Source: Vermamoeba vermiformis
Lineage: Eukaryota
Length of the DNA stretch: 34,781 bases
Assembly (NCBI GenBank): GCA_045837725.1
Contig: JBEWZL010000053.1
Span: 124,001 to 158,781 of the forward strand
Direction of reading: 5' to 3'
Every line of letters starts with the position of its first letter. Within the stretch, counting starts at the first letter, position 1. Shown piece by piece: positions 1,513-34,541 of the stretch. Made by a program: the position numbers and the translations under genes. Under the pieces are notes generated by a model. That model was not told where the DNA came from and did no database searches. It saw nothing but the letters and a program-made list of their open reading frames with translations.

Positions 1513-1845
1513 AAAAGCATTAATAATATAACGATTCTGATTCACTAATATATTAATAGTATTAATAGTTAGTTTAGCTTTTCCCGCGTGGAATGGAACC
1601 GGTCAAAAAGAAAGTTGTTCAAAAAATTGACTTTATATTTTACAAGATTTAAATATGAGTATCAATATGGTATGTATGATTTACAACGAGGGTTTTTGTT
1701 GTATATACATGCTACTTGGCTAACAAGTAATGTTTTTGATATGTACTACGTTTTACTGGAAGAAAACACATCTGTTGCGATAAATAATTGTTTAATAAAA
1801 CTAAAATTACAAATTCGATGGATTACAAGCGACACGAGGCCTATC

Positions 1846-4800: not shown

Positions 4801-4930
4801 CATCAGGCTTTGGTCGATTTAAACACGAAGGACGATCACCGGATGAAGTATATTGTTGACTACTCGTATAAGATGCAAGAGCGAGCACTACTATAAATAG
4901 CGTAGCAAACGTAATGGAAGATCCGACCAT
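1846..4930 (-). CDS. Class C (GABA-B-like, 7tm_3) GPCR paralog 1 with signal peptide, OpuAC/ProX-like substrate-binding ectodomain and C-terminal coiled coil. Exons approx. 4930-4801, 4728-4542, 4476-4385, 4051-3740, 3688-3467, 3402-3300, 3250-3086, 2875-2631, 2573-2480, 2415-1846
   Basis: Spliced frame is intact. 7TM class C motifs: SKVIIASS, GFALLFGSLFAKTGRIYLLF, YNEAKYIGLAMYN, LFIPK. Ectodomain motifs GDIHACLEYW, GWYIPRYV, QPILFWTWRP and EVACQWVTENEQVWQNW resemble the OpuAC/ProX family. Confidence 0.85.
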
Positions 4931-5741
4931 TGTATATTGTTTTCGGTTAGGATTATGAATGAAGCCGCGTGGCACTTCTAATGTAGTGGCAAAACACAAT
5001 GATTTAACCGGTGATTGCGCATTATATGCTACGAGCTGTCACTTGTCTACCGCCAATTAAAAGATCATCGTAACAACTCGATTATCAGGGATTGCAGTTA
5101 ATTTGTCCGTCAATATTCATTTAAGAACGTATATATACACTCGCGACGGTGGTGGTGAATGAATTGGAACAACTTAAAAAAAAAAATAAGATCCGGTCTG
5201 GCATAAAAATGGTGATTGTATTTACGGAAAAATTCAATATATCACCATTGTCACTTCCGATCGCGTGTTGTAAGTTGACTATATTTGGCTCAGTATCTTT
5301 AAATTATTTCATGGTACTGGTGACAAAACAAGCGTGCTCCAGATACTTACAAGTAAGTAATTCAAATCTAGACAACTTGATACACAAGCTGTTCGGGTAA
5401 TTGCTTGCAATCACCGGAAGATCTGGAACGTTTGATCAGATTTAATTTTTAAAATTTCAGAAGTCGCCGTTTACGTACCTTATCAAATGGTATTTTTTTA
5501 CAAAATAGGTAGTCGAATTATTGTTGGAAGTATAAAATTATTTGGCAACGTGGAGCAGACATTCTGTTCGGTTCGTTTCGATCAAGCATCCAAAACTGCT
5601 TCTTTGATGTCATCCAACGGTAGATAGCTCCTCCTACCCAAGCATATAAGGAAGATAGTATCGTGTCAAATCAGTTGTGTTTATTGCCAGCGCTAAAATG
5701 AACAAATCAGGTTTTTGAACACCGGAATGCGATAAAGACGT

Positions 5742-8700
5742 TTAGGCCCATTCGCAAGTGGTAAAGGCAGTCTCTTTGACAAGACACTCTTTGTACCACA
5801 ATTGATGTTTCACTGAACCAACACCGTTCGGAACGGAGAGTGTTGTTGTCGATTGAGGTGCAACGAGTTCAATACCTTGCATGCCAATCACTCGATGAGT
5901 GAAACCACTTGTCAAGTCAGCTGAGAGTACGAGAACGTTAGAACAACACGAACTGCACGTGGAAATAGCTCAAACGTACTTCTGGTGGAAGTGGCTTGAA
6001 CGGTGAAGTTACTGGTGGGACCACTCGAGCATTGCGAAGGAGGTGTGACGGTGACAGTTGTGACAGGACCAATGATCACTTCACATCCTCCCCAGTTGCG
6101 AATCATAGACAGTTGATCGGCGGTGAGGTCTGAAATAAACTCGAGTTATTATGACTATCTTTTGTTATGGCAACAATGTTATGTACCGTGGAAGATAAAA
6201 GCAGGTTCAGTATCGATCTCAGCAGCGTTCTTGAGAGCAGCAGTCTTATTCATGCCGAAAGAAGTGATGTACATGAGTGCCATTTCTTCGCCAGCGGGAA
6301 GAATTGTAAGGTAAGCTGGGCTCACAACGTATGTACCTGAAAGTTTCCCACTGGCGTAACATCGGCTTGTCTGATCCCGACCCTTTGGACCTGAAGAAAA
6401 TTTGATTCATACATTTAATTCGATTAATACTAATAGCTACCTCTACCGTGCACAGAGAATTTTGTATAGGCATTAAGAGAATCTTCATCGTTATTATTGC
6501 TACCCTTGTCCCCAGCTTGGAACGGCGAACTAATTACTAGATTAGACATTTCAGATAGCTAGACGTCATCCTGTCACATCACTTACCCAGTGTAGTATCG
6601 CCCATTGTTATCGATTGGACTGATATCCGTACTGTACACGTTTGTAAACCAGTCACCCCACAATCTCACTCGCTCGGGTGTGCTTCCAGTGTTCTTGATG
6701 AATACTACTTGGCGAATGTAACTTGTGGCTAGAAGACGGATCGTTGAATTAGCCTCTTCAATCGAATTGATTGCACGTACCGTTTGGCACACTGAAATGA
6801 ATGTAGACTTGGAGATTTTGATAACGAGCGCGCTCACCCAGGTCCCTCTCTCGGTAGTCTGGGTAATTAGGACCAAAAATAGCACTCGAGAGACTGGTGC
6901 AAGTGAAGTTTGCTGTTGGAACAAAAGTATCTTCACTTATGCTAGTAGTCGAATTGAAACCAGGCTGCAGTGGTATTTCTGTTAAGGGTTAGCAACTTGC
7001 GAATGAGTTTTTGTTTTCTTACGGTTGATCCAGAAAGACATCGCCGTCAACAAATTAGTTGAGTCTGTAGGCCTTAGGTAAAGATCACCAACGCCCATCC
7101 ACCAACCATTTTTTAATTCCCACTTATATGGAGCCTTTATAGATTTGTGAGAAGTACTGTAAACAAGATATGAAAACTTACCGTTCTATCTTCATTAAGT
7201 CCGAATTCTGCCTGCATAACCGAATCCGCTCCCACTAAATCATTCACGGCTACACTTTGGCAGGTCGATTGGCCTTGAGCAAGACAAACTAATACTAGTG
7301 TAACAAGCGCCAATTTTAACACCGAAGACTTCATTGCTGTGCCCGAAAGAGATGAGCCAGCTATGATGCTTAGTAGTGAGACTAAGTAGTTGAACCCAAG
7401 TGACAATCCACCACTCGTTTTCCCCTGTGGTGATGTGCTTTGCGGAGCTGATTGAGTGCTGGGTACTGCGGGAGCTGCCCTTTTGCAAGCGGTGAAGGCA
7501 GTCTCTTTGACAAGGCACTCATTGTACCACAATTGATGTTTCACTGAACCAACACTGTTCGGAACGGAGAGTGTTGTTGTCGATTGAGGTGCAACGAGTT
7601 CAATACCTTGCATGCCAATCACTCGATGAGTGAAACCACTCGTCAAGTCAGCTGAGAGTACGAGAACGTTAGGACAACACGAATTGCACGTGTAAATAGA
7701 TCAAATGTACTTCTGGTGGAAGTGGCTTGAACGGTGAAGTCACTGGTGGGACCACTCGAACACTGCGAAGGAGGTGTGACGGTGACAGTTGTGTCAGGAC
7801 CAATGATCACTTCACATCCTCCCCAGTTGCGAACCAGAGACAGTTGATCGACAGTAAGGTCTGATTGAGCAATTAGTGACTTCCAAGTACAAAGATGAAG
7901 ACGTACTGTGGAAGATAAAAGCAGGTTCAGTATCGATCTCAGCAGCGTTTTTGAGAGCGAGAGTTTTGTTCACTCCGAACGAGAGGATAAACATGAGTGC
8001 CATTTCCTCGCCAGCAGCAAGAGTCGTGTAGTAAGTGGGGGTAATGAGGTAGTTATCGTAGTCGCCTTCAACAGAAACACTTTGATCGCGACCTCTGGGA
8101 CCTTATAATACTTAAGTACTGCGCTAGTGACATTGTAATACTACCTTTAACGTGCACAGAGTTAATTATGTTCGGGAGTGAAGAAGCCGGATCATTCTTG
8201 TATTGGCCCAGATCCCCATCTTGGTACGGAAAACTGACAAATTGCGTTAATACCAATTGAATGTTGATGCTCACAATTTACCCGGTATAGTAACGGCCTC
8301 CGTTGTCTATAGGACTCACATCCATTGCGTAATCGTTTGTGTACCAATTGCCGTACAACTCAAATCTCTCCATTACACTACCAATGTTCTTTACGAATAG
8401 AATTTGGCGAATGTAACTTGTTTCTGGAGATTTATAACAGTTAAATAGCATTAAAAAACTGAAATTCGGGATTTAGCAACTAAATTTAGGCCGAATACGT
8501 ACCAACCGGAACGCTTGTATGAACATATACTTGGATGTTCTGGTATCTCCCACGCACTTCGTAGTCCTCCTTTCGGTAGTCCGGATAAGTAGGACCCCAA
8601 ATTCCGCTCGAGTCGCTGGTGCAAGTGAAATTGGCGGTTGGAGTAAAACCCGTTTGAGTGCCCGAGCTGTAAGTACTGTTAAGCCCGGGCTGAAGAGGAG

Positions 8701-9130
8701 TCTCTATACGAACATTTAGCTCAAGAAGAAAAAAAAATCGCAACTGATCTGAGATTTAAAAATCCGTAACTTGGATTACTCATTGATTAACGGATAGTCA
8801 TCTAATAGCTTACGGTTGATCCAAAAGAATATGTTTTTGATGTAAGATAATTTATCGTCGTGGGTAAGGTAGTACTCGCCATTAGCACCAGACCACGGTT
8901 TACCGAACATGGCCCAAGAGTACGGAGCCTAAATAGTCAGTCAGTCAATTACGTAAATGATGAGAATTTATGCTTACTACACCTCCTCCATCCTTAAGAC
9001 CGAAGCTTAGATTCATTGCCTTCGAAGGAGAAACCCATTCATCCACTCCAATGTTTTGGCAAGAGTTTTGGCAGTAAATAATGCCAACCAGCGCAAATGC
9101 TAGTAAAATTTTACAAGCCGTTTTTTGCAT
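5742..9130 (-). CDS. Secreted/surface protein of unknown function made of two homologous units joined in frame (unit A ATG 9130; unit B ATG 7334; stop 5742-5744)
   Basis: Both units start with a signal peptide (MQKTACKILLAFALVGIIYCQ; MKSSVLKLALVTLVLVCLAQG), share the same 7 intron positions and phases, and splice without stops. There is no stop between unit A's tail and unit B's ATG (ORF 7137..7646). Confidence 0.7.
5761..7864. repeat. Near-identical direct repeat, 5761-6133 vs 7492-7864 (offset 1731), covering the 3' exons and last intron of units B and A
   Basis: Alignment by eye shows only scattered substitutions, including across the intron. Confidence 0.9.
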
Positions 9131-9462
9131 TGTGGTCGATGCAATGCATGTTAAAAAACGTTTGCGTGAAACAAAGTTATCACGTGTGTTATTTTTTACC
9201 GGTCTTTCAAAATGAAAATTCAATAAGCACCGACATTCTTTCGGTCATTTTAAATGTCTTGACAATGTTTTTATATTTTCTTTATTTTTGTTAACTTTAC
9301 ATTGTTTAAAATACCGGATCGGGGCAAAACGGTAGAAAAAAGTGCCGTCCGAAAGGTTGCGTAAGATAAGGCCTTGTTCTTTCTTTAGAGCTACATCAGA
9401 CGCACTTGAGTAATGATTGCGGGCATAAACTAAAAATACAATTTATTGCACATCCAAAGTAA

Positions 9463-12409
9463 TTACTGCTCGGTACTAAGAGTTAACTGTTCGTAGAATC
9501 TAAGCTTGCCTTCGAGCTCGAAGATTCTGTTCCTCAGTATCGTGTTCTCATGCGAGAATTTTTCATAAAGGGCACGGTACTCGGATTGTGTTTCGTCCTT
9601 TGACGTCAAAGGAGTATCCCGCAGTTTCTTATTCTCCTTTTTAAGCTCTTCGACCTGTTTATGAAGACTCTTAACGCTATTAGCGAGCTCGACCATTTCG
9701 TCTTCAACGATTGATCCAGATTGGGACTTCCAGCTATTGCCGGATTCGACGCCAGTACCGCTACTCTTCTTTGTAGAATTCTTTTGATCACTCGATGATG
9801 CAAACTTCTTGGTGTACGAGCGAATTACAGCTTGAAGTTGTGCTTCGTTCATTTGTCTGAGCTCTTCTTCGGTGTGATTGAACAACAAGCGGATCTTGGG
9901 GATGAACAGTACACTAAGCGAGACCATGGTGATGAAGAGAATGCAGCAACACAGCAGTGCATAGCGAACAATGACGTCGCTGACTAAGAAGATAACTGCC
10001 ACGAAGATTGCGATCAAGGCAAAGTTGTACATCTACGCAAAAAACAATATCGGTAATTAAGGCACTCAAATAACGTGCGTGTTTGGCGTGTACTTACAGC
10101 AAGACCGATGTACTTGGCTTCGTTGTAAAGTGTCAATCGCAACTTGCTCACGAGTGCTGCAATAATTATACCAAACACGATGATAATGCCCTAATTATCT
10201 GACGTTAGTTATTTGTTGCTTGTACAAAGGAGTTGTGTTCTTGATCTTACGTTGTAGACGAGCAAAGTGACACCCGTGGGCAAGTGATACAAACAGAACG
10301 AGAACTCTTGGTCGCCTTCTGTTTGGAAGGCATATGTCGCGGGTTGCATGCCAGTCATGACACCAAGAACGATGATTTCACCAACGAGGACGACGGCAAC
10401 GCAGAGACCGACATCACGATCAGTGTATTTGACAAGTTGAAGTGACTTGTTCGAGAACAGCAAATAGATGCGTCCTGTCTTGGCGAACAGAGATCTAAAA
10501 AAATATGAAAATGAAATTAAATTAGTACAATTGCTTGAATCACTGGAATCATAGGAACAATACACGCGGAGAATCTTTTTGTTGAAAGTGTGTAACTCGC
10601 TGATTTGTCAAAAGTTGCGGGCACGCGCACGTGTCATGTTGTCAAATTGAAAGTGTCACATCAGATTCGCGGCAGAATTGAGCACGTGTCATTTGTGGTA
10701 TTGCGAGAAACTTACCCGAACAACAAGGCAAAACCAACAGGAAGCATCCAAATGAACAAGTTGCAGCCAATATCAGTGTTCGATACGAATGCTGCGACTG
10801 AGCCGAACATCAACATGCCTCCAACGCACATTGATACTAAAAACATTCCACTTGATGCGATGATCACTTTTGATTTACGGCTAAATTGCAGTTAGAATGG
10901 TATACTAAGGCTACGGAATAATTCAATTGTCTAAATATGGAAAGTTTAACGCGCAAATCTATTTCAAAACTTACTAGTGAATCACGACGCTCATGTAAAA
11001 TATAGCCGCAGCAATGCACAATGAAGTTAGGACCCACATACTGATTTGAATTTCTACGCCGACTTTCTTGAACGAAGCTAAGAATAGGATTAAACTCTGC
11101 AAAAAACGCGATCTGATCGAGACTTACAAGGACGAATCCAGTTTTGCCAAATTTGGTCGTTTTCATTAAGCCATTCGCAGGCAGCATCATAGGCTGTGTA
11201 ATTCTTGCTGAAAATTTGCGCGAGGAGGTTGTTCATCGTGTTAGTATCCATAGAATAAGATTGGACCAAGTACGCAGCGGCAGGAGAATACTTCGCGAAG
11301 TTCGTCTCCCATGAATTTGCCCAAGATTTCAGAAGGATAATATATAGCTATATGAATCGTGATTAGTATGATTAGAAAGTAAGCAGAGCCAAGCTTACTA
11401 TTGTTAGGCAATGATACGCGAACGAGATCGTAGTTGCTGAAGATCACGTTGGGTCTCCAAGCGAAGAATAGCATAGGCTCTTGATTGGCGTATTTAGTAG
11501 CCAACATAGTATTGAATTCAGTGATGCCGCTCAATACTTTGACGGTCAAGTTGTATCCGTTCGAATCTATGATCTGCTGTTCAGGTCCAGCCCAGTACTT
11601 GTCGCCCAGAATGAATGTATTGTTGAAGTATGCGGATACATTAGGATTGGCAAAGTCGCCTGAGAGGGCGGTAGGAACATCTTTCAAAACGTAACGAGGC
11701 ATGTACCAGCCTAAATATGAAATCGCATCAGATCCACTAAACCATGCAGAATGTCAAAGTGTACAACATTGTGCGCCAAATTTAACAGTTTAACCCAAAA
11801 AAGGTAAAATATCGCGCCACGCCGCATAATTTTTTTAAATTTCTGAATTTACATTTAAATTGCCACCATTTTATAACTCACCAACTGTGCCTATTATGCC
11901 TACAGGACCAGCTGACGTGATTGTTTTGTCGTCATAAAAATACTTTTGCTCTTCAGCTTGTCTAGTTGAAGGCCTTTTTGAAAAGCGGATCAAGTTAGTG
12001 ACTCAATTTCTCAATTAGGAATTATAAGATTCGGTCATACCAGTACTCCATGCATGCGTGAATCTCACCAGAAGCAACGCGAGGCCACACATCGACCGCA
12101 TTTGCCGGGATCAAGTTGTTCTGTTCGCCGATCACTTCGTCGAGCAGAATGCTGACAATATGAGCGTGAATGGCTGAGTTAGCGTTAGCAGGGAAGGATA
12201 TGTTCACTACATTGCGTTCGTTATAACCTACATCGTATCTATGTTAGTATAAGCTTTTGAAAGTAAAAATAGAGCTTGCCATCTGGTTTTGGCAAATTGA
12301 GACACGAAGATCTGCTTGACGATTGAATGATCTGTTGCGATGAGACTTTAAGAGCACATATCACTACGGCAACGAGGATTGTCACGTTGCGGAAGTTTAG
12401 TAGCGTCAT
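9463..12409 (-). CDS. Class C GPCR paralog 2 (OpuAC-like ectodomain). Has one extra base near 11292 (assembly error or pseudogene) and a GC-AG first intron
   Basis: Same exon structure and motifs as paralog 1 (GEIHACMEYW, GWYMPRYV, FFAWRP, AACEWLNEND, LFAKTGRIY, LFIPK). The frame shifts within exon 11347-11127. Confidence 0.8.
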
Positions 12410-13232
12410 AATGAATAAAAAGTGACCAGTAAAGCAGATTTGCTCGTGGTGGTACTGATTCAAACAGTTGAGTTCAACTGAACTAAAATTATAAAAACAC
12501 AGACGTAACTTGGTATTAAATAGGTGGCCATTCTGTCATTCATGTCTTGCCAAAACGAACAGGTAAATTATAAGGTATTGCAGTTGATTGATCCGATCCT
12601 CCGAACAACCAAGATTATTGGGAAGATGTTCAAATGTATACCTATTAATTTATGTTAGTTATTCAATAAATTTTTGCAATGATTGGTTTAATTATTCAGA
12701 TCTGAGCGGTAAAAACACGCTGATCGAGCGGGACAATTATCAATTCGCTATTAAATCACGCAACCGCTTTTAATTTTGGTATTAAAAATAGTAGCACTAA
12801 ATAAGGTTAAGTTTCGGTGGCTCAATTGATTTCTGAATCAGATCATTAAATTAATTTTAGGAAGCGCCAAGTATTGCATCTAAAGGCAAAAATAAATCAC
12901 CCAAATTATAAATAAAAAAATATATTAGAATTTCTAATATATTTTTTTTTTTCTCACTTATGTTCGCTTACCTTAACCTTAACAGATCATTTCTATTCGC
13001 ATCTGCCTTCCCGTGGACACGAACGATAAAATAATGATACCAAAACCTCCCCGTTAATCATTTGATTACACAAACAGACCATTTTGTTGACAAGCAGTGG
13101 TGGTGCATAACACGGACTAAAACTGATGTTTGCGAACATTTTCAAACGAGATTGTTTTACGAATTAATTAGTTAGCATAATTTAATGATGTATAATACAA
13201 TATTAACATTAATGGTGCACTTACTGCGATTA

Positions 13233-15883
13233 TTATTGCGATTCTGAGTCGGATCCATGTCCAACCTCTTTTTTGTAAACTTGGCTGTTGCTCATTTTCA
13301 AGCGACCTTGCAGCTCGAAAACTTGGTTCTTAAGCACCATAGACTCGTGGTAATATTTTTCGTAAAGTTGGCGATATTCTTCGGGCGTTGTTTCTCGTAA
13401 CTTTTTGACTTCTTTTTTCAGCTCTTCGTTTTGACTTTGCAAATTTCTCATAGAACTAGCCAAATTCGCCATTTCATCTTCGAAAGAAGATCCCGGGAGA
13501 GTACTAGTCTTATTGGTGTCTTCTTTTTTCGCTGAACCCTTCGAATTCTTTTTGTCGCTGGAGGAGGCAAACTTCTTGGTGTAAGATCTGATCACTGCTT
13601 GAAGCTGTTGCTCGTTCATTTGCAAGAGTTGTTCTTCAGTATAAGTAAATAACAACCGAAGCTTTGGGATGAATAAGACGCTCAACGAGATCATTGTCAA
13701 GAACAAAACACACGCGCAGATCAATGCGAATTGCGCGACAATGTCCTTCACCAAGAAGATCACAACAATGAAAATTACGACGAAACAGAAGTTGTACATC
13801 TAAAGAATATGTTAGTAATGCTTGGAGGCAAAGAGAAATACTTACGGCCCAACCAATGTATTTGGCTTCATTGTACAGTGTCAATCGCAGTCTGCTAATG
13901 AGAATCGAAATTATGACACCAAGTATCATAACAACGCCCTAAAGTAGAGATTAGCATTGACAATACGCATACTATAATGGCACTCACGTTAAAGATGAGC
14001 AAGGCTACACCAGTCGGGAAGTGGAACAAACAGAAGGTAAAGTCCGTGTCTCCGAGGCTTTGGTACACGTAATCCGCAGGTTGTATAATAGTCATTGCCA
14101 CGAGGATCACAAACTCGCCAACCAGGACGATACCAACACCAAAGCCAACATCACGATCAGTGTACTTGACGAGTTGAAGTGACTTGTTTGAGAACAACAA
14201 ATAGATGCGTCCTGTCTTGGCGAACAGAGATCTGACGAAGATCGGTTAGCACTGCTTTGACACGTGTAACAAGTCGAAATCTCAAATACGAAACTTACCC
14301 AAACAACAATGCAAAACCAACAGGAAGCATCCAAATGAACAAGTTGCATCCAATCATCGTGTTTGAGACGAATGCAATGACAGAGCCGAACATCAACATG
14401 CCTCCAATGCACATTGAGATCAAGAACACACCACTCGACGCGATGATCACCTTTGACTTGCGGCTTAACAGAAGAATTAGAATAGACTACAAAATCGGTG
14501 ATAAGCACGTACAATTTGATTACTGATATCAAGTAGAACAACGTGCAAGCGATGCAGAAGGCTGTTACGACTTGAATAGCTGTTCTTAGATCAAAAGAGA
14601 CCTCTTCGTACTTGGCAACACGAATCCAATCGGTCCAAATAATCTCGTTCTCGAGGATCCAATTGCACGCCACTTCACTGATTGATTTGTTCTCGTAGAC
14701 TTGCTTCAACATGTCGAGCATGTCAGCTTCTCCGATGTTGATAGTTTGAATCAAAAACATCGCTTCATCGCTGTAGTCTTTAATATTCGGCCACGTCATT
14801 TTACCCAAGATTTCAGGTGGATACAGGTGGGCTGAAAAAATTTGGTTAATTCTTTTGTAAACAAGATCTAATACTCACAATCGTCCAAATAGCTAACACG
14901 TATAAGATCCAGCGTAGTAGTCAACATATGTGGCTCCCACAAAAAGCACAAAAATGGCTCTTTCTTCGAATATTTGTGCGTTACAATGCTGATCAGTTCA
15001 TCGATGCCAGACAAGGTCTGAACAGTTAAAGAATAGTTGTGCTTGGCTATGATGTCCGGTTCAATCGTTATCCAGTCCTTGTCGCCAATGATCAAAGTGT
15101 TGTTGAAATACGATGCTATTTTTGGATCCGAAAAATCGCCGTACAGCGCTGCCGGCACATCCGCTAAAACATAGCGAGGAATGTACCAACCTATAATATA
15201 GTATCAATATATGGCCTTAAGGCACAGGTGCTTCATAATAGAATGTACTGAACGTGAGAAAATAGATTTCTTTTGGGGAGATTGTAATCTCCTCAAACTC
15301 CGTACCGGATACGTTAAGTAACGATATAAATATCCTTACCCATCTGTCCGACAAACCCTAATGGGCCTGCCGCGAGAACTGTTTTATCATCGTTGATGTA
15401 TTTGTCCAACAATTTCCATTGTTGAGCCGGCCTATTTTCATGAATGAATGAGATTGACAATTCAAACTCGACGCGTGTGAAGTGTTATCAATCAATATTA
15501 TAACCTTACCAATACTCGAGAGAGGCATGAATTTCTCCAGAAGCGACAAGCTCCCAGACGCTGTTCGGATCGTTAATCGCCACTTCTGTGTTTGGCACTC
15601 CGACCACTTCAGCTAATAAAAGTCTCGCAATTGTGGTGCTAATTCTAGAGGTTTCCCAATTATTAGAACCGAAGCGTACAACATTATGAACATCGTAGCC
15701 TAGAAAGACAAGGGCGATCAGTACGTGGACACTTACTATTTTAGAGCAAATTGATGACTATGAATTAAAATAATTACCTGCATGTTTCGTCCTATTTAAA
15801 CAAGTCGGTATGTCTGGCAAGAGCTGCGCGGCTGTCAGAGTTGACAGCAGCACTAATAACCAAAAGAGATCTTTTAGTCGCAT
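13233..15883 (-). CDS. Class C GPCR paralog 3 (OpuAC-like ectodomain), apparently intact
   Basis: Signal peptide MRLKDLFWLLVLLSTLTAAQ; VVRFGSNNWETSRISTTIARLLLAEVVG; GEIHASLEYW; GWYIPRYV; FLWEPH; 7TM region; coiled-coil tail. Confidence 0.85.
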
Positions 15884-16730: not shown

Positions 16731-18739
<2,009 letters not shown>

Positions 18740-19035
18740 CTGACACTAGCAATACTATAATACAAAATAATATACAAGGAGTTGTGTTGTTGCAGTTCAG
18801 AGCGAAAAATTTGTTTTGAAACAATTCTCGATCAAATTTCTACCCGTTACCACAAGACCGTTATAAATCGTTACAATCATATTAAACATGCGTGGGTAAG
18901 AATATGCTGGAATTAGACACGTGTAGGATGAAAAGTAGCGGCCTTCAAACACGATTCGGATCTTGCACTGCTAACGGATTTTGGTTGCTAATGCGCTAAT
19001 AATTATAATACAATTTTATTTGTATGTTCTGGAGA

Positions 19036-24869: not shown

Positions 24870-27135
24870 ATGTCAAGCAAAGAAGGTGTGATCGTTGTTG
24901 GATACGGCCGAATTGGTCAAGTCCATCTCGCGAGCGTTTTGGCGCATCCCAAGTTGTTCTTGCATACCTTGGTTGGCAAGGATGAGACCAGATGCAAGAC
25001 TGCCCTCGCTACTGCTTTGAAGCCTCACTTGAACAGAGAAGGAAAGTTGAAGGATGGTGCTACGCCAAACGCTTTCAGCGCTGATAAGTTCAAGGAACTC
25101 ATCGAGAAGAACGATCCGATTTTCGAAAACGCTCGTTATATCGTCATCGCTTCTCCGACTCCTAACCACGCCGAGTTGATTGAATTGGCTTTGAAGTACA
25201 AGAAGCCCTTCCACATTCTTTGTGAGAAGCCTCTGACCACCGATCCGGCAATCAACAAAGAATTGTACGAAAAGGCACAAAAGGCTGGTGTTGCCCTCAT
25301 CACTGGTAAATATTTTATAATATTTTAAAAATATTTGTGGCGAATTATAATCGATTTTTCATCCAGCGTACAACAGAAGATTTGATCCTCACTTCATGAA
25401 GCTCAAGGAAACCGTTCAAAACAAGGCTGGCAAGGTTCAAATTTTGAGATTAACGTCAAGAGATCATCCCAGCTCCTCCTTCAGAATTCTTGGACTCTGC
25501 TGGTAAGTCGATCTGAACGCAAACCGTTACATGATCTGAACCCGAAAAAATTTAGGAACCTTTTTTGAGGATTTCAGCACTCATGATATTGATATGGCTC
25601 GTTGGTTGGTCGGCGAAGAGCCTGAAAAAGTTTGGGCTTGCGCTTCTCAACACTTGCCAGTGTTCAAGAGCAAGGGCATCGATGACACTGCCGTCATTGT
25701 GCTCAAGTTCCCTAGCGGCTGTTTGTGCTTGATTGAGAACAGCCGTCGCACTACTTACGGCTACGACCAACGCGCTGAAGTTTTGGGCACCGCTGGCCTC
25801 GTGGTTGCCAACAATCCTAAGCGCAGTGCCGTCACTTGGCACACCAACGCCGGTGAGGTTGATGACTTGGCCGTCTATTCTTTCCCCGAGCGTTACAAGG
25901 AGGGCTACTTCAACGAGTTGGATCACTTGGTGCAAGTCGCTCATAACACCGAGAAGGCTCGCGTCAATGCTGACGATGTTATCAACAACGCCAAGTTGTG
26001 CATGACTTGCCAAGACTCACGTGTCAAGCAAGTTGAAATCAAGGACCAACACTTGACTGAGTACCCTATCCCTGCCTTCCCCACCAAGTCCACTGGCACC
26101 GTCAACTTTGCTCTATTCGGCGTTGGTCGCATGGGCTGCGTTCGTGCTGATGCTATCATGGCCAACCCTAATGCTCGCTTGTTGGCTGTCTATGACGTCG
26201 ATCAAGAACGCGCTGCTATGATTGCCAAGCAATACGGATGCAAGCACGCTGTTAACCCTGTCGATGCCATGTTGCCTGAAGTTGATGCCGTTGTTATTTG
26301 CACCACCACTGCTGCTCACTGCGAGTTGATTTTGATGGCTGCCAAGGCCAAGAAGAGCGTCTTTGTCGAGAAGCCTGTCGCTTTGTCCACCGCTGACACT
26401 GAGCTCTGCGTCAAGACTTGCCAAGAGAACGGTGTTTTCTTGTACTGTGGCTTCCACCGCCGTTCTGACGCTGAGTTCCGTCACGCTTATGAAGGTCGCT
26501 CCAAATTAGGAAGTGTCGAATTGATCCGCATTTCCAGTCGTGACGCCGCTGACCACAACTCTTTGGCTTACTTGCTCAACAGTGGCAACTACTGGTACGA
26601 CAGCTTGATCCACGATTTTGATATTGCTCGCTGGATTGCTGGCTGTGATCCTGTCGAGGTGTTCAGTGTTGGCAGTGCTTCGATTCCTGAGCTCGCTGAA
26701 CGTGGTGACATTGACAACGTTGTCGTTGTTCTTCGCTTCCCTAACGGCGCTATTTGCACTATCGATAACAACCGCCGCGCAGGTACGACTAATACTTACC
26801 ATAGATTATTCAAATATTAATGTTGTTGTGTAGTTTATGGCTATGATCAACGCTTGGAGGTGTTCGGTGCCAACGGCATGGTTGAAGTTCACAACAAGAT
26901 CCAATCCGAATTGACTTACGGTTCATTCGACGGCTTTGCTTACGACAAGACTCAAGCTGGTCTGACTCGTTACAAGGAGACTTATGTCAACGAGACCAAT
27001 CACTTCATCAACTTGATGTTGGGCGTTGAGAAGACTCCTCGTGTCTTCCACTACGACTCTGTTCGCAACGCTAAGATTGCCGACGCTGCCTTGGAGTCCT
27101 TCAAGACTGGCAAGCCTGTTGCTCTTCACTATTAA
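24870..27135 (+). CDS. Tandem double-domain Gfo/Idh/MocA oxidoreductase (myo-inositol 2-dehydrogenase IolG-like). Exons 24870-25305, 25367-25502, 25556-26782, 26834-27135. One extra base near 25469
   Basis: Two complete motif sets: GYGRIG/CEKP/AYNRRFD/SRD/HDID/YGYDQR and GVGRMG/VEKP/GFHRRSD/SRD/HDFD/YGYDQR. Strong C/T-ending codon bias. Confidence 0.9.
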
Positions 27136-27248: not shown

Positions 27249-29074
27249 TTAGTGCAATTGAGATCGCACGTAATGGCCAGAAATCAGTGCTGCAACGATA
27301 CCTCTGAAGGATCCAGTGGAATCACCGCACACCCAAATTGGCAAATGTTCTATTTTTAGCTTTGAATCTAATTCCGGGTACCATCCGATGCCTTCTAACG
27401 TTGGTCCAATGACTTTTGCGCTTGATTTGTTGATTGTAAACTTGTCACAGAGTTTTGTCAATCCATCGATAAGCTCTTCTGCAGCTGTTTGACCGTATAC
27501 TGTGTTGAATGTAGCAATAGATTCGCGATTAATACTGTTGCCGCTATGCTCGTCTTGACGAGTCTCAGGTACTAACTCTTCTAATGGCAGTTCAAAGCAG
27601 TTATCAGATCGTGCTAGACTGTGCGCCATGTGTGCCCAGATCTCATTCGCAGTTTGTTCGTTAAGCACTCGAACATTAAATCCAATATTAGACACGCCTG
27701 TTGGCATGCAATCTGCTCGGCCTGATGCAGAGTACATTCCTAGAAAAAAAAAACAGATCCGGTCAGTACGAAATTTTAACTTTTTAGGGTTTGTCGTACC
27801 GTTAGTTTCAGAAGCAATTACTTCACCATCTTTACAGGCACAAAAGGTTCGTAGCTGAATTTGACGCCGTTGATCGACGTAAATGAACTTCGGATCGTTC
27901 AGCTGACTTTCGTTATCTTTGTATTCGCAGAAAAAACTCGCTGCAGTCTCCTGTTGAATTCTAACTCCGAATTCTACGCGTTGGAATACTTCTTTGTATT
28001 TTAATTGCTGGTTCGTACTGCCTTTTCTTGATGTGTTTCCATTGAACATTTTTTTCAAGTCCAACGGTCCAAATCGGCCTCCAGCGAAGATTAAATACCT
28101 AAAATAACAAGAGTAAGTTAATGTTGCCTTATTTGGAAGTCTTATAGCGGATAGATCTATCCTTACTTTGTCCGTACGACTTTTGTTTGGCCGGTACTTG
28201 TGTTTAGTAATGTACAAATAAGGATCGGACTATTGTCGTTGGTGTCTATACTACGTGTATGATCTAAGTGCATGGAAATAATCTTCGTTGAAGTCACTAA
28301 TGTCGTATTGGATGCAGTTCTTAAAAGTGACCGGATCAACTCCTCTCGTTGTTCTGTATTTCCGTTAGTGTTCGAATCAGATAAATAAAGTACTTTATAG
28401 ATCGTACCTAATGATAAGTAGATTGATGGGTATGGCTTATGATTCCAGCCAGATTCGTAACGGACTGGAGCAAACTCAACAGGATCTGGGAGGAACTCCG
28501 CTATACTTGGATCCTATTATATACATAATGTTAATGCGTATTTCATACTTGATCGTTGCGAAGGAGAAAAGACGGAGTTAGTTTAATTTAAGGTCTTTCG
28601 GAGATCTAGCAGTAAATCGGTTAGTACCTGTTCAACGAGCTTTTTATAAGTCCATAATACACTTGATTGCAACAGCTCAGTATTATCAAGACTCCATAAG
28701 TTTGTTGAAGATGGGTAAAACGAGAACTTGCCATCTGAAAATAATCCAGCGCCACCTACGAATTAAAATCGCGATCAATATTAGGAATAATAATAATTAA
28801 TTATAATTACCTATTCCTTGCGTCATATCGGCAGATTTATAGCGATCCCTCAAACAGAAATTCTAAATTTAGATCCTCTTGTTAATTATTCCAAAATAAC
28901 GGTTGAGGGTTTCTTTAATATGCGTTGTAATATTACCTTGCCCATATCTATTATGAGTGTTTTTAAATTATTGGATCCGTTGGTCGCTGCAAGTCCTGCA
29001 GGGCCACCGCCAACAACTAAAATGTCGTAGTCGCGTTGGATGTGCTCGAAGTCCTTCTCTATATCATCGCTCAT
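27249..29074 (-). CDS. FAD-dependent oxidoreductase (uncharacterised, COG2509-like), 7 exons
   Basis: DILVVGGGPAG (Rossmann), GIGGAGLFSDGK, IFAGGR, EFGVRI, RTFCAC, IWVCGDSTGSFRGIVAALISG (GD motif). The spliced frame is continuous. Confidence 0.85.
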
Positions 29075-29335
29075 ATTGCTATAGTGTTGTCAAATTAATG
29101 GTTGCTGTCTTTGTTCTTTAGAGCATCAACCGACAATAACTCGCCGAATCTGAGCTTTTTATGTCCTTCCAAACAATCGAAATCTAGAATTCGCGAGTCT
29201 TGTATGAACTCACTAATAAAAATAATACGCAACTAAACAAGAAGAACGTTTTTTTCAAGGTTAGAATTCCGGCAAGGGCAAAAAAATAAATTTTTGTGTT
29301 TTTATCAATTGATTTTGAATTTACGAACGCATCAA
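29075..29335. promoter_or_regulatory. Probable shared divergent promoter (261 bp) of the FAD oxidoreductase and the Ham1-like fusion gene
   Basis: Divergent ATGs at 29074 and 29336. Confidence 0.5.
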
Positions 29336-30981
29336 ATGACGACTTATTATATCAGCAACAATAATATTAAATTCGCAGAAGTAAACAGACTTCTGTTGGA
29401 TTCTCTCAGAAATTACGAGTTGCGAGATCTTCCTGTCGGTTCGATTTTCTCCCAAGAGACTGCTGACTCGGAACAAATATTAGAAAAAGGTGCTAAAGAG
29501 GATGTATTATCAGCATACAATTCCTTGAAGGCCCCGTGTTTTCTTGAACGCCGTTGGATCAAAACGGATTCAGGTAAGAAAGTAGCGCTCAGCACAGATT
29601 ATGCGTTTGAGTGTTATTACCAATAATATTCCTAATTTTATTATGCGATCTAAATTATATTTTATAAAATAGGCAAAATTCTCGTTCACGTAACGGACCA
29701 GAATCTCGCGAGCTACAAAGACCAAACCGGCGAGCAAGTGATTGCTGTAGCCTATACTGATGGAACTGACACCAAGTTATATACTACATCGATTAAAGGC
29801 AAATTTGTCGAACCTGCGGGCAGTTCTAAAGATATTTTGGAGTACGCTTAAATTTGAAGCTAAATTTAGATCCTCTTACTAATTTTATCATTTAGTTGTG
29901 TATGGTTACCCGAGGGATACCAAAAGACACTTGCTATCCTCGGCGAGCACTGCGGAATTCAAAATTCTCCTTATTTGGATCTTGCAGACGACGTTAGAAA
30001 ACACGTCTTTACAGGTAAGAACTTAATTGATGATGGATCTTAAAGTCATATTAATAATCTCTATAGGTTTGATGGAGATTCACATCTTTGTTGCGCCTTT
30101 GAACGCCCCTCAAGACGTGCAGGACAAGTTCAAGAAAGATTGCAACGACAACGGCTTGAAGTGTTGCAATTTGAGACTGGACACCGTGCACTTGGGCATG
30201 GTCGGTAAGTACAAGACTATACATAGTGAAGTAGACTAATAGGCATTAGGTGCTTTGATGAGCTCGCGTTACATTTCGGGCACGATGAACAAGATCTGGC
30301 GCGAATCTTTCAAGGACGCTCAACTTCTTGCCAAATTAGGTAAAGACTCGGTACTAAAGTTTATCTCTTGTGCCTGCCACTGAATATGAGTACGAACAGG
30401 TTGGGATGTTATCCGAAACAAGATTGAGGCTACAGCATCGATCGAAGGCGTGCCTGTTAGCGACACTGATGCTAAAACACTGCCCAAGAAGACCTACTTT
30501 GAGTTCCATATGGTCTTCCAGAATAGCGATGGCACAACTCCCGACCCTAAAGGCATCGAGGAGGTCAAGGGTATTGCTAAGAAGTTAGAGAAGGAATGGA
30601 ACATTTGCATTCCATTGTCAGGTAACAACGCATCCAGATCGCATCCAACAGATCAGACCTAACTCGTCATTTCAGAGAACTGTTTCGGTACGCAGCGATT
30701 CTTGAACATGCGCACGTATGGTATTGGCCGTGATAACGCGTTCCCTCGCTTGGAAGAGCTCGCTGAACATGTTCGTGCTGCTGGCTATCTCGTGCCCAGA
30801 TTCATTCGCGAGTTTGGTGTCTACGATTCAGCGGTAAGTTAAAATAGCAATTTTGGAGTTTGGAAGCATTGCTCATGATTACATGACGCAGGTCGAAGTA
30901 GATTGCGGTTGGTTAGAGCCGTTGAAGGTTCCTGGAGAATATTCGCCTGGATTTTTACCTCCTATTGTGTACTCTAATTAA
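29336..30981 (+). CDS. Degenerate Ham1/ITPase-like domain fused to an uncharacterised domain with two ExH motifs, 8 exons
   Basis: N-terminal half: ISNNNIKFAEV, SAYNSLKAPCFLE, VAYTDG, IKGKFVEPAG, DCVWLPEGYQKTLA (Ham1 scaffold). C-terminal half: MEIHIFV, RNKIEA...GVP, YFEFH, RFLNMR, REFGVYDSAVEVDCGWL. All 7 introns are phase-consistent. Confidence 0.75.
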
Positions 30982-31244
30982 ATATCTGCAATAATTTCAA
31001 ATTCCTAAACGTGTCAAAAAACTGACAGAATCCGGTCGCGTGTTGTATTGCAAATTATTTCATTAATTAACTGAAGCACCACGATATTACCTGCGGAAGA
31101 TTCGCTGGATCGAATTGCAGGTTGCATTCGTTACTCGTACAAAGAGGTAAATCAGTTGTTTTTAAGACTTAAAACGCAAATCAATAGAAATAAATATAAT
31201 ATCGTTGTCATAATAATATTTTTAAATCTAGATAGAATTACAGA

Positions 31245-34200
31245 ATGCGCTTTTCACGGATTTCGGCAACGTATTGGAACGTCGCAGCGGTATTTCTAGC
31301 AATAATGGTTCAAATAATTACAGCGCAAGTACCCGTCAATTCTACGGCGCTTTCTTCTCCTCGAACAGCAGTTTCATCTGTTTCAATTGGAGATCGAGTG
31401 TTCTTCGTTGGCGGATTCGACTTCCACCAGAAGGTTTCGAGCGACAAGATTGATATATTTGACGCCATTAATCAAACATGGGCCACTCCTCTCTCGCTTC
31501 CGAGTGCTCGAGGATTCGTGACACCTGTCGTTGTGGATCCAAATATTTATTTTCTTGCTGGAATTTCCCACGACAATCCTCCCTTTCTGTATCAGCCCTC
31601 AAACAGGTCCTTCGTTCAAATGCAAAGTGCTGGACCGACAGTTCGAGAGCCCAAACAACTTTCGCTGTTCAATTCAGTTTTGACAGTTGTTGGAACTTTC
31701 ACGGTGGATTTTTACGACATGACCAGCGGCAATTGGAGTTCCAACAGCAACTTGACCGAAGTGATGATGTCATTGACCAACGCACGGATATTTGCTTACC
31801 AACAATACGTCTTTGTCATTGGCGGCCAAGAGTTCAAAACCGACGAAATTTCATCGCACGCTTGGATCTTCAACTACAACACGAATGAACTCATCAAATA
31901 CGACAACGTGACTACAGCTAATGTCACATTCGAGTCGAGCACATACGACGTGTCCAACAACGTGTTGGTGGTGCGATTGAGTGACAGGTGTCTGCTGTAT
32001 CATTTCCTCCGAAACGAGTGGCACGAAGAATTGGACGCGTTCAACATTGTCAGCTCAGTCACGCAAAATGATCTCACACATCTATTTGGCGATAATTACG
32101 TTATTTACGATTGGATCAACCGTGCTACAATAACCAAGGGGGCTACATTTATCAAAATAGGCTTTCTCCTCAATGACACGATTGTGTATATAATGGACGA
32201 GGCTATGGTCGTAGGAACACAAAAAACAAGCCTTCCTAACGTAAAAGTTACTGGATCCGTTCGATTTGCACAGCCCTGGTCCTCGACACTTTACACCTTC
32301 ACCGACGATCAAAGTATTTATTGGTTTAACAGCCAAGATTCGAGCCTTACAATAATCCCAAACATGACAGACATCCGTTCAGTCATCGCAGACGGTGACA
32401 CACTGCATGTCTTCGATTACAGCTCGAATGAAGGAGTCATGAATTGGCGCTTATTTGATCCCAGTCCCATGTCCGTAATCGTACCCCGAAAGCTCAAGTA
32501 CCCAGTGGCTCCTCAAGCCCTTATCAACGGCGTATTTGTGGACCCTTATCTCGGCACGATGTCAATCACGGACTCCAATGACATTCAATTGTTCAGCAGT
32601 CAAGGTTATATAGACATATTTACCAGTGTTATTTTCACGGCGCATGATAGCAACACATTCGTTGTCATGCAGGATGCCCCGCCACAAAACGGGCTGCAAC
32701 AATACAAGAAAATGGACGTGTACAACTACGTTAATAACACTTGGACGACGAAAGATATGCCCGACGAGCTGTTTTTGCCTGCAAACAGCAAGAGATATCG
32801 CGAGACGTTCATGAATGCCGCAGGGTTCAACGACAGCATTATGGTGTGGATTTCTGGAGTATACGGAATATACGACATTAAAGCAGACAACTGGACGACA
32901 TACACCAACGTAACATTAGGAACAGAAGAAAGACCAATCATGAGGACGCGATATCTTGACGCACTTCATTTTCAAACTCCGGTTATTGACGGCATTGCGT
33001 ACCTTAATCACGAAGAATTCAATTATTTCTACAAATTTGCACCAGATCTGCTCTCGTGGGATAAAACAGCGCCAACGTATTCAGCCGAAGAAGATCCGTT
33101 GCTGATTCAACAACCAGTGGCGTTCAATCACACGCTGTACGTGTCCATGCGACAGAGCACGAACATCACGTACTTGTACTACTATGACACTGCGCTCAAC
33201 AGCTGGCAAGCCACTTTGTTGCCATCGCCATCGACCTTCGTGGCAATCACAGCGGCCGGAGATTTCCTCATCGCCGTTTGTTCGGACATAAAGTTGCACA
33301 TTTTCTCCGTCAGACTCGGACAGTGGAACACGCAAGAGTTGGACTATGAGGTCATTCCATCAACGATCATTCATGTTGGCAACGTCACGTTGATCGCTGG
33401 TGGCTCCACTGTATCTTCAGGCTTGTATTCGGACTCGGTGCTTGTCGTGTCAGACGACGTTGTGTTCATTGAAAAAGCACCTGCGACTCCGACCAGTACC
33501 ACTAACCAGCCTTCCGATCAGCCGCAATCAACCACTGGTCTCACAGTCGGCGAGTTGGTGGCAGCGATTGTCGTTCCCGTCGTAGTAGTTCTTGCCGCAG
33601 GACTTGCTTTATTACTCATTCTGTTACGAAGACGCAAGAGAAGACAAACAACGACGACAGTTGGATTGGAACAACAGTTCAGTGAATGGTTCACACCGTT
33701 CAGTGAAATCGAGTTCAGAGAACAGTTGGGTCAAGGAGCGAACGGCCAAGTGTTCAAAGGCAAGTGGAAGAACACTGATGTTGCGTTGAAAGTGAGCATG
33801 ACACAAGCGAATCAAAGTGTCATCTCCGAACTGTCGCTGATGATCAACATGCGACCTCATCCAAATGTCGTGCAACTTCTTGGCTTCAGTGTGCATCCTG
33901 AAACGAACAGTGTCATACTGATTCTCGAGTACTGCAACGGCGGATCGTTAGACAAGCAAATTATGGAAAAGAATGCGCCGGAAATGCCAATCAATCAAAA
34001 GCTTCAGTTGTTGCAAGGCATCGCTCGTGGTGTCATTCACTTGCACTCGAACAACATTGTGCATCGAGACTTGGCAGCACGCAATGTGTTGTTGCATCAA
34101 GGAGAACCAAAACTGACAGACTTTGGCATGTCACGCATTGTGGACGATCAACAACAACGAGGCACAACCAAATCAGAACTTGGACCCATTCGATGGATGT

Positions 34201-34541
34201 CACCTGAGTCACTTGGCAGCAAACAGTACTCGACCAAGTCAGGTAAGTCTTCGCATAATATATAACCTACTCTGCCAACCTCTAACGCTGCACTCTCAGA
34301 TGTGTGGTCATTTGGTATTCTCATGTTTGAAGTGCTTGCACAACAAGAGCCTCACCTTGATGAAGATCCAATCGAAGTTGGACGCAAGATCAGAGACGAA
34401 GGACTCACACCTCAACTTCCATCATCGTTGGAGTGCTTGAGTGACTTCACATCGATCATGAATCAGTGTTGTGCATTTGATCCGAACTATCGTCCGAGTA
34501 TCGAACAAGTCCTTCAAAAACTCGAGCAGATTCCTCTATAA
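31245..34541 (+). CDS. Single-pass receptor kinase: signal peptide, Kelch/beta-propeller-like ectodomain, TM, tyrosine-kinase-like domain. Exons 31245-34242, 34300-34541
   Basis: Kelch-like LSSPRTAVSSVSIGDRVFFVGG and YVFVIGG; TM followed by RRRKRR; GQGANG, VALK, HRDLAARN, DFG, GPIRWMSPE, SDVWSFG across the single intron. Confidence 0.9.

Follow-up and report, generated by a model that had tools for sequence, protein, structure and literature searches.

A head-to-head gene pair in Vermamoeba vermiformis joins an uncharacterized flavoprotein family to a Ham1-like/twin-ExH protein, a candidate module for non-canonical nucleotides

The window analyzed here is a 34,781-nucleotide stretch of the Vermamoeba vermiformis genome (GenBank assembly GCA_045837725.1, contig JBEWZL010000053.1, positions 124,001 to 158,781 of the forward strand). 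It contains two divergent genes, denoted A and B, that are separated by a short spacer. Gene A encodes a flavin adenine dinucleotide (FAD)-dependent oxidoreductase, and gene B encodes a protein in which a divergent Ham1/ITPase-fold domain is followed by a domain that we denote twin-ExH. The features of the pair, in window coordinates, are:

27249..29074, minus strand: gene A, FAD-dependent oxidoreductase, 466 amino acids (aa), 7 exons (gene model)
29074-28937, 28862-28811, 28755-28628, 28513-28408, 28353-28167, 28098-27800, 27739-27249, minus strand: exons of gene A
29075-29335: divergent spacer, from ATG to ATG, 261 bp, GC 33%
29336..30981, plus strand: gene B, 407 aa, 8 exons (gene model)
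29336-29573, 29673-29841, 29896-30014, plus strand: exons 1-3 of gene B, divergent Ham1/ITPase-fold N-terminal domain, about aa 1-170
30067-30204, 30250-30339, 30400-30621, 30676-30833, 30892-30981, plus strand: exons 4-8 of gene B, twin-ExH domain of the ExHxF subtype

On the minus strand, gene A extends from an ATG at 29074 to a stop codon at 27249-27251; gene B, on the plus strand, extends from an ATG at 29336 to a stop codon at 30979-30981. The six introns of A (74, 55, 114, 54, 68, and 60 nt) and the seven introns of B (99, 54, 52, 45, 60, 54, and 58 nt) are all short and of the GT..AG type; the GC content of the window is 41%. Splicing was checked against spliced database proteins: P0001 aligns with A at 82% identity over 404 residues and P0121 with B at 90.5% identity over 379 residues, both continuously across the exon junctions. 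Both genes are also present as spliced, RNA-derived contigs in the public run X1, which exactly skip two of the six A introns (28354-28407 and 28514-28627) and five of the seven B introns, namely, those within the twin-ExH part. RNA-seq data X10-X12, under the same species label, yielded 1-4 reads at 95-99% identity, which have no bearing on expression. A preliminary description of this DNA, made from the sequence alone, had recognized two intact, intron-rich genes diverging from a 261-bp spacer, and the gene models, the two database proteins, and the X1 contigs bear this out; the flavoprotein and ExH motifs quoted there are likewise all found in A and B. The spacer is presumably a promoter region common to the two genes. 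Wherever full-length window proteins were needed, P0001 and P0121 or single-exon references stood in for them.

The in-frame read-through of exons 6 and 7 of A identified 121 relatives among 515 candidates, the best bacterial and metagenome matches being about 41% identical. These proteins are about 420 aa long, are mostly labelled 'uncharacterized FAD-dependent dehydrogenase' or 'FAD-binding protein', and come from Streptomyces and other Actinomycetota, Photorhabdus/Xenorhabdus, Halomonadaceae, Colletotrichum and other fungi, Yasminevirus, and Balamuthia. The invariant motifs of the family (GGAGLFSDGKFSF, RTFCxC, SGRxDC, GPTxEG, and GDxxGxFRG) are all kept in the window protein, where they read GGGPAG, RTFCAC, SGRADCMPT, GPTLEG, and GDSTGSFRG, so that A belongs to this family by both full-length similarity and motifs. 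Pfam detected in A only an N-terminal dinucleotide-binding motif, below threshold, and, also below threshold, PF21688 (FAD-depend_C), which scored 14.2 bits on the window protein and 13.1 bits on P0001 against a cut-off of 27. The best profile match in the PDB was 3nlc (VP0956, COG2509), with an E-value of 2e-9 over 58 N-terminal profile positions (7-64). COG2509 proteins resemble A in that a GGAGxxSDGK-type segment comes after an N-terminal FAD-binding fold of the GxGxxG type, but 3NLC is 549 aa long, compared with about 420 aa for family A, and the RTFCxC, SGRxDC, and GPTxEG motifs are A's own. Membership of A in COG2509/PF21688 (3NLC-type) was rejected, and A is a distinct, uncharacterized, and distant relative of COG2509, because the 3nlc match is confined to the N-terminus and PF21688 stays below its cut-off.

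The AlphaFold model of P0121, built from a 62-sequence alignment, has a pLDDT of 90.4 and a pTM of 0.88. Residues 2-143 of this model form a Ham1/ITPase fold: VIA-align gave Z-scores of 11-13 with 134-140 residues aligned, the highest being 12.8, 12.5, 12.3, and 12.0 over 135-140 residues, the 12.8 being to 9v0g_A of the KomBC complex and the 12.3 to the Plasmodium protein PfHam1 (8ji1), and Foldseek matched ITPases with E-values of 1e-5 to 1e-3. KomB, of the Kongming system, is described as a dITP-responsive Ham1-like protein (PMC13454610). At the sequence level, P0121 was not recognized in searches of Pfam, NCBIfam, or the PDB; in particular, PF01725 gave no match at E<=1, and the NCBIfam model of non-canonical purine nucleoside triphosphate diphosphatase reached only 11.9 bits (E-value 0.14) against a cut-off of 272. 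The ESM Atlas returned a top cluster with a score of 0.76, which we treat as a lead only. Thus, according to the predicted structure, the N-terminal domain of B has the ITPase fold, but its sequence falls outside the Ham1/ITPase family: PF01725 is silent and the motif set is incomplete. The Ham1 proteins encoded in the bacterial clusters described below share with window B the N-terminal motif S/T-x-N-x-x-K-x-x-E as well as conserved G, D, and R columns, but they have an acidic E/D-D pair where window B has E-R. We take these positions to be catalytic in Ham1; the domain of B may bind rather than cleave its ligand, and the label 'pseudo-Ham1' seems plausible from the sequence.

Relatives of B were collected in a full HMMER scan of 1.84 billion representatives, which yielded 503 matches at a threshold of E<=1e-3, with 185 remaining at E<=1e-10 and 19 at E<=1e-30. 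The 62-sequence alignment of the twin-ExH domain contains 13 invariant columns (E, H, R, K, E, P, Y, E, H, R, E, D, and W), and window B keeps all 13, as E179, H181, R257, K259, E261, P270, Y284, E286, H288, R338, E371, D376, and W385. The motifs MEIHIF, YFEFHMV, QRFLNMR, REFGVYD, and DCGW are all present in window B. In the P0121 model, the domain (residues 147-353) consists of two tandem ferredoxin-like beta-alpha-beta-beta-alpha-beta units, and the model of the standalone Balamuthia homolog P0129 (pLDDT 92) has the identical topology. The invariant residues alternate along the strands as E-x-H, R-x-K-x-E, and Y-x-E-x-H, followed by R, E, D, and W, from which we infer that, in the predicted fold, they would line one face or cleft. 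VIA-align detected no PDB match to the domain above a Z-score of 8.3. The twin-ExH domain has no Pfam family and no clear solved relative.

Several known superfamilies were considered as relatives of this domain. Chlorite dismutase, DyP, and aldoxime dehydratase share with it the tandem ferredoxin-like arrangement, in their case as alpha+beta barrels. Aldoxime dehydratase gave the best whole-domain alignment (Z-score 7.8, 201-208 residues, root-mean-square deviation 4.7-4.8), but Z-scores of 7-8 are the background level stated for the tool; HemQ and DyP were matched by Foldseek with E-values of about 1e-4, TM-scores of 0.25-0.3, and deviations of 15-18 A, and the other structural matches were generic ferredoxin-like proteins. 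The 2H/LigT superfamily resembles twin-ExH in its pseudo-twofold organization with a beta-strand histidine in each half and in its nucleotide- or RNA-related context; the first motif of the ExHxT copies (see below) conforms to H-x-T-x, and the Balamuthia protein P0129 is labelled '2'-5' RNA ligase superfamily protein' by one source. The window motifs, in contrast, are H-I-F and H-M-V (HIFV and HMVF rather than H-x-T/S-x), and the predicted topology is a tandem ferredoxin-like repeat. The Pfam 2H models gave no match on P0121, PF13563 was silent at the B loci of two B-containing genomes, and hhalign assigned a probability of 1.7% to the alignment with a thin, three-sequence 2H profile. The assignment to 2H phosphoesterases was dropped after these profile tests and the fold models. 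Among the Foldseek and VIA-align matches listed, there is no 2H, CYTH, or AbiEi (1ZEL-type) chain, which does not by itself exclude these folds.

The only library with models matching the twin-ExH domain was PADLOC, in which two 'AbiEi' models, PDLC02277 and PDLC02279, span it end to end with an E-value of 5e-22. The AbiEi family of Pfam is absent from the P0121 matches even at E<=1. Canonical AbiEi is a winged-helix DNA-binding antitoxin. COG5340 and COG4861 antitoxins are mentioned, and nothing resembling twin-ExH appears, in the relevant part of PMC11375011. The PADLOC name can be traced to relatives with an ExHxT first motif, which pair with AbiEii: these precede AbiEii (DUF1814) genes, whereas the window copy is of the ExHxF type and its partner is a flavoenzyme.

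This division is apparent in the phylogeny of the domain. We gathered 164 twin-ExH sequences, of which 119 were near-complete, dropped the fragments, and added the giant-virus copy described below; the first motif is ExHxF in 54 of these, ExHxT/S in 64, and different in 2. In a quick maximum likelihood tree, an ExHxF clade of 55 rows, supported by a Shimodaira-Hasegawa-like approximate likelihood ratio test (SH-aLRT) value of 99, includes window B and three close homologs, all 10 complete copies adjacent to an A gene, all 6 copies fused to A, and the giant-virus copy, whereas the five AbiEii-fused proteins fall among the other 65 rows. The tree thus assigns window B to the flavoenzyme-linked clade rather than to the AbiEii-linked one. 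The ExHxT copies come in three forms. In the first, the domain is fused to a recognizable Ham1 in proteins of about 380-470 aa. In the second, it belongs to long, eukaryote-like proteins that combine AbiEii nucleotidyltransferase, Ham1, and twin-ExH. The third is a standalone gene located between dnaG and a sigma-70 gene; it was found in 3 of the 301 Actinomycetota genomes sampled and is directly followed by an AbiEii gene in both of the loci examined with Pfam. As side observations, P0184, P0216, and P0168 are long, GC-rich proteins of the second form, of which P0184 carries an added C-terminal RNA-ligase module detected by Pfam, and P0168 and P0216 have a tail that looks similar by eye; this architecture suggests a role in RNA-end modification or repair. 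In the Actinomycetota loci (L089:7926-9646, L091:6998-8883, and L090:7992-8642), the dnaG/sigma-70 interval is a conserved chromosomal site that houses an AbiE-like pair whose 'antitoxin' is non-canonical.

Physical linkage of A and twin-ExH recurs far outside Vermamoeba. Among the 12 long proteins fetched from the 150 listed matches to B, 6 are fusions with family A at the N-terminus and twin-ExH at the C-terminus (P0155, P0164, P0187, P0202, P0204, and P0235). The A alignment was then used to scan prokaryotic genomes, one for each species. This yielded 107 confirmed loci, of which 80 were kept, and we searched these loci for twin-ExH using a profile of 34 standalone proteins; prokaryotic twin-ExH loci were thus reached through A loci. 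A twin-ExH open reading frame (ORF) touches A in 11 of the 80 loci and occurs nowhere else in them. The linked loci belong to three Myxococcota, four Chlamydiota together with a bacterium (L065) that clusters with them phylogenetically, a Legionella metagenome-assembled genome (MAG), a gammaproteobacterium related to it, and a Nannocystaceae MAG. Two of them (L063 and L075) have A and twin-ExH in the head-to-head arrangement of the window pair. In a control, the profile gave a single match, the adjacent gene, in each of five linked genomes and none in five A-only genomes, the latter being drafts or MAGs in which absence is not proof. A giant-virus MAG with a GC content of 28% (L082) encodes twin-ExH and A 2.8 kb apart, with two unrelated genes intervening, and its A gene is truncated by the end of the contig; scans of viral contigs with the single proteins P0155 and P0129 found nothing. 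Both families are also present in Balamuthia. Complex prediction for P0001 with P0121 gave no answer (score 0.00, without controls), which carries no weight either way. Thus, the families of the window pair are adjacent or fused in unrelated genomes, as is characteristic of a conserved module, and the two expectations of the preliminary description, namely, a patchy spread over bacteria, giant viruses, and microbial eukaryotes, and occurrence as neighbors or fusions elsewhere, are upheld by the family searches, the fusions, the viral and bacterial loci, and the Balamuthia proteins. The refuting condition named in that description, a lack of any co-occurrence, adjacency, or fusion in other genomes, is thus contradicted.

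The genes surrounding A and B in bacteria point to the substrate. The chlamydial and Legionella-type clusters encode, beside A and B, a deoxynucleoside monophosphate (dNMP) kinase of the DNMK type (PF21448), whose fusion partner is B in L055 and Ham1 in L071, along with a fused S-adenosylmethionine (SAM)-dependent methyltransferase and PhyH dioxygenase, an adenine-phosphoribosyltransferase-like protein, and a canonical Ham1 (PF01725). In L074, from a Legionella-like gammaproteobacterium, the order is B-A-Ham1 with overlapping stop and start codons. Directly 3' of this operon, L074:11845-15051 encodes a 1068-aa protein with C-terminal ankyrin-like repeats, recognized by eye; ankyrin-repeat proteins are typical of effectors in amoeba-associated bacteria. 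All three myxobacterial loci contain a phosphomevalonate-kinase/DNMK-like kinase, and two of these (L075 and L078) also encode Ham1. Altogether, Ham1 is found at 7 of the 80 A loci, 6 of which are B-linked; the window, with its Ham1-like::B fusion and A, therefore reproduces the three-part set of the bacteria.

Loci that lack B typically have a divergent TetR regulator before A and NUDIX and/or HAD after it (confirmed by Pfam in L021 and L036). Within 1.5 kb of A, jackhmmer detected NUDIX at 42, HAD at 26, and Ham1 at 6 of the 80 loci; one or more of these hydrolases accompany A at 55, and 61 loci have one of them or a link to B, which leaves 19 with none. The two bacterial A loci closest to window A in the unconstrained tree are L001 and L002. 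L001, from Elusimicrobia, encodes A, a second A paralog, Ham1, and HAD; at L002, a NUDIX ORF lies less than 1.5 kb from A. The two A paralogs of L001 are in tandem (5239-6657 and 6632-8044), with the Ham1 and HAD genes after them.

We consider A and B to be parts of an operon-type module that processes a non-canonical nucleotide, and assign to this interpretation a probability of roughly 0.6. The recurrent fusion and adjacency suggest that the two proteins act in one pathway, and the Ham1, DNMK, and phosphoribosyltransferase neighbors, supported by NUDIX and HAD, suggest that its substrate is such a nucleotide. The preliminary description had proposed a nucleotide or nucleotide-sugar-like metabolite; the neighborhoods favor the nucleotide and provide no specific support for the nucleotide-sugar. 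The window pair is best read as a eukaryotic, intron-bearing form of a module that is widely though patchily distributed across bacteria and other microbes, with a near-neighbor arrangement in a giant virus. Its components would be the FAD oxidoreductase A, which is COG2509-like, a Ham1-type unit that binds nucleotides or acts as a pyrophosphatase, and the twin-ExH domain, the last two being fused as gene B in the window. These parts would act successively on a base- or sugar-altered nucleotide, probably in the following order: the Ham1-like domain would bind the nucleotide or cut it to the monophosphate, twin-ExH would perform a metal- or acid/base-assisted step on the phosphorylated substrate, and the flavoenzyme would oxidize or reduce the product. 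The head-to-head spacer of 261 bp would provide for co-regulation of the two genes.

Several observations weigh against this interpretation. Twin-ExH is missing within 10 kb of A at 69 of the 80 loci; A can therefore function in its absence. Because phosphoesters other than nucleotides are also substrates of NUDIX and HAD enzymes, the term 'nucleotide' rests mainly on Ham1, DNMK, and the phosphoribosyltransferase. The Ham1-like domain of the window itself is silent in Pfam and has E-R in place of E/D-D. A profile of standalone twin-ExH domains matched nothing in the PDB at E<=0.1, and the best solved match of A, 3nlc, is itself uncharacterized. A full-text literature search, supplementary files aside, revealed no functional study of either family. 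Co-expression is suggested by a single run, X1, of undefined composition. Finally, the free tree of A sets it apart from the linked bacterial genes. In this quick LG+G4 tree of 105 rows, from which the partial sequences L050, L061, P0095, P0110, and P0202 were left out, two metagenome proteins and two from Elusimicrobia are the companions of window A and P0001 (SH-aLRT 98), and the 63-row clade around them has no B-linked members, its bacterial members lacking B. When window A was constrained to join the 16-row clade of B-linked and fused sequences, the log-likelihood was 3.5 higher than that of the free tree, and the approximately unbiased (AU) test gave p-AU 0.57. On the operon origin proposed in the preliminary description, and on the congruence of the two trees, the evidence is two-sided: B falls in the A-linked clade, A falls outside the B-linked clades in the free tree, and the constraint is not rejected. 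The A tree fits both a joint arrival of the pair and its assembly in the eukaryote.

Of the alternatives, the one that fares best, although we regard it as unlikely, is that the module builds a modified nucleotide or nucleoside, such as a signal, cofactor, or natural product, instead of cleaning one up. Under this scenario, the phosphoribosyltransferase and the kinase would supply the nucleotide, to which the methyltransferase-dioxygenase and the flavoenzyme would add modifications, with twin-ExH performing another tailoring step. The chlamydial and Legionella-type clusters, which combine the adenine-phosphoribosyltransferase-like protein, DNMK, and the methyltransferase-PhyH fusion, are of the kind typical of tailoring pathways. 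However, the hydrolases that flank A at 55 of the 80 loci are of a degradative or sanitizing type, and the window offers A and Ham1-like::B only, with no phosphoribosyltransferase, kinase, or methyltransferase in the 24.8-31.2 kb interval examined.

A role in conflict or immunity appears rather improbable. The Ham1-like domain would, in that case, sense an odd nucleotide as KomB does, twin-ExH would be an AbiEi-like partner serving as regulator or effector, and A would be an effector or a signal-processing enzyme. This possibility draws on the end-to-end coverage of twin-ExH by the PADLOC models, on the ExHxT copies located directly 5' of AbiEii genes in both Actinomycetota loci examined or fused to AbiEii, Ham1, and, in P0184, RNA ligase, and on the KomBC chain being the top structural match of the N-terminal domain. 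The Z-score of 12.8 to KomBC is, however, tied with those of true ITPases (12.3 and 12.0) and does not discriminate between them; window B belongs to the ExHxF clade, in which none of the 17 rows of known context, out of 55, is associated with AbiEii; PADLOC has no model for A; and the A-linked clusters lie amid metabolic genes and TetR regulators, without evident defense islands. Membership of the window pair in an AbiE toxin-antitoxin system was rejected: B is flanked by A and by the kelch-kinase frame described below, AbiEii (PF08843) not having been scanned for elsewhere in the window.

Coincidental adjacency, whereby A and B were acquired independently, serve separate processes, and merely have a short spacer in common, would accommodate the position of window A among B-less bacterial relatives and the 69 loci without B, but is the least probable explanation, given that two rare families (B being present in 3 of 301 Actinomycetota) are fused six times and adjacent at 11 loci elsewhere, making chance neighbors unlikely, that the head-to-head layout recurs in L063 and L075, that the tree does not reject window A in the B-linked clade, and that the nearest bacterial A locus also carries Ham1.

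The nucleotide-processing module can be extended into a bolder proposal, which we offer tentatively and consider possible at best. Twin-ExH, with its tandem ferredoxin-like cleft, two E-x-H pairs, and R/K/E residues, might represent a new enzyme fold-family that, together with the flavoenzyme and the Ham1-type unit, would constitute an undescribed nucleotide repair or catabolic pathway, for example, one that salvages a damaged purine nucleotide by reduction or oxidation. Gene transfer would have spread it among amoeba-associated bacteria, giant viruses, and free-living protists, and the ExHxT sister clade might perform the corresponding chemistry as the counter-enzyme of AbiEii/MenT-type tRNA-modifying nucleotidyltransferases.

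The gene that converges on A was also examined:

24870..27135, plus strand: doubled Gfo/Idh/MocA (IolG-like) oxidoreductase gene, convergent with A (Pfam)

It contains PF01408, PF02894, and PF22725 twice each, that is, two N-terminal plus C-terminal units, and its stop at 27135 lies 113 bp from the A stop codon at 27249, so that the double gene and the spacing given for it in the preliminary description are correct. The gene is not a conserved partner of A: relatives are confined to 3 of 82 A loci, where they lie some 9 kb away, and it was rejected as a third member of the module.

The remaining observations on the window concern genes farther from the pair. Just 3' of B, on the plus strand, 31236-34265 is a single 1009-aa frame in which we recognized by eye kelch/beta-propeller-like repeats, an N-terminal signal-like stretch, one transmembrane segment, and a C-terminal protein kinase (HRDLAARN). 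On the minus strand, the region 1800-15200 contains three tandem paralogs with near-identical C-terminal tails (ORFs 1846-2415, 9463-10032, and 13233-13799), each with a 'GWY(I/M)PRYVL.DVP' segment and hydrophobic stretches; by eye, they resemble fusions of a substrate-binding domain with a membrane receptor, arranged in a tandem array. The minus-strand exons at 17109-18745 encode an AAA ATPase that, from the translations only, appears Vps4/katanin-like, with an MIT-like N-terminal ORF at 18404-18745 and the AAA core at 17109-17549.

The window pair thus connects two sizeable families without assigned function through fusion, bacterial adjacency (11 of 80 loci), and a eukaryotic head-to-head arrangement. 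The ties to Ham1, NUDIX, and HAD, classic 'house-cleaning' hydrolases of nucleotides, turn what has been annotated as a 'hypothetical protein' into a testable idea, that of a flavin-dependent step in the handling of odd nucleotides, and the twin-ExH domain gains a second context beyond 'AbiEi', the only label that it bears in defense databases. In Vermamoeba, the locus is a clear example of how a functional module of bacterial type has persisted in a eukaryote as two neighboring genes with introns.

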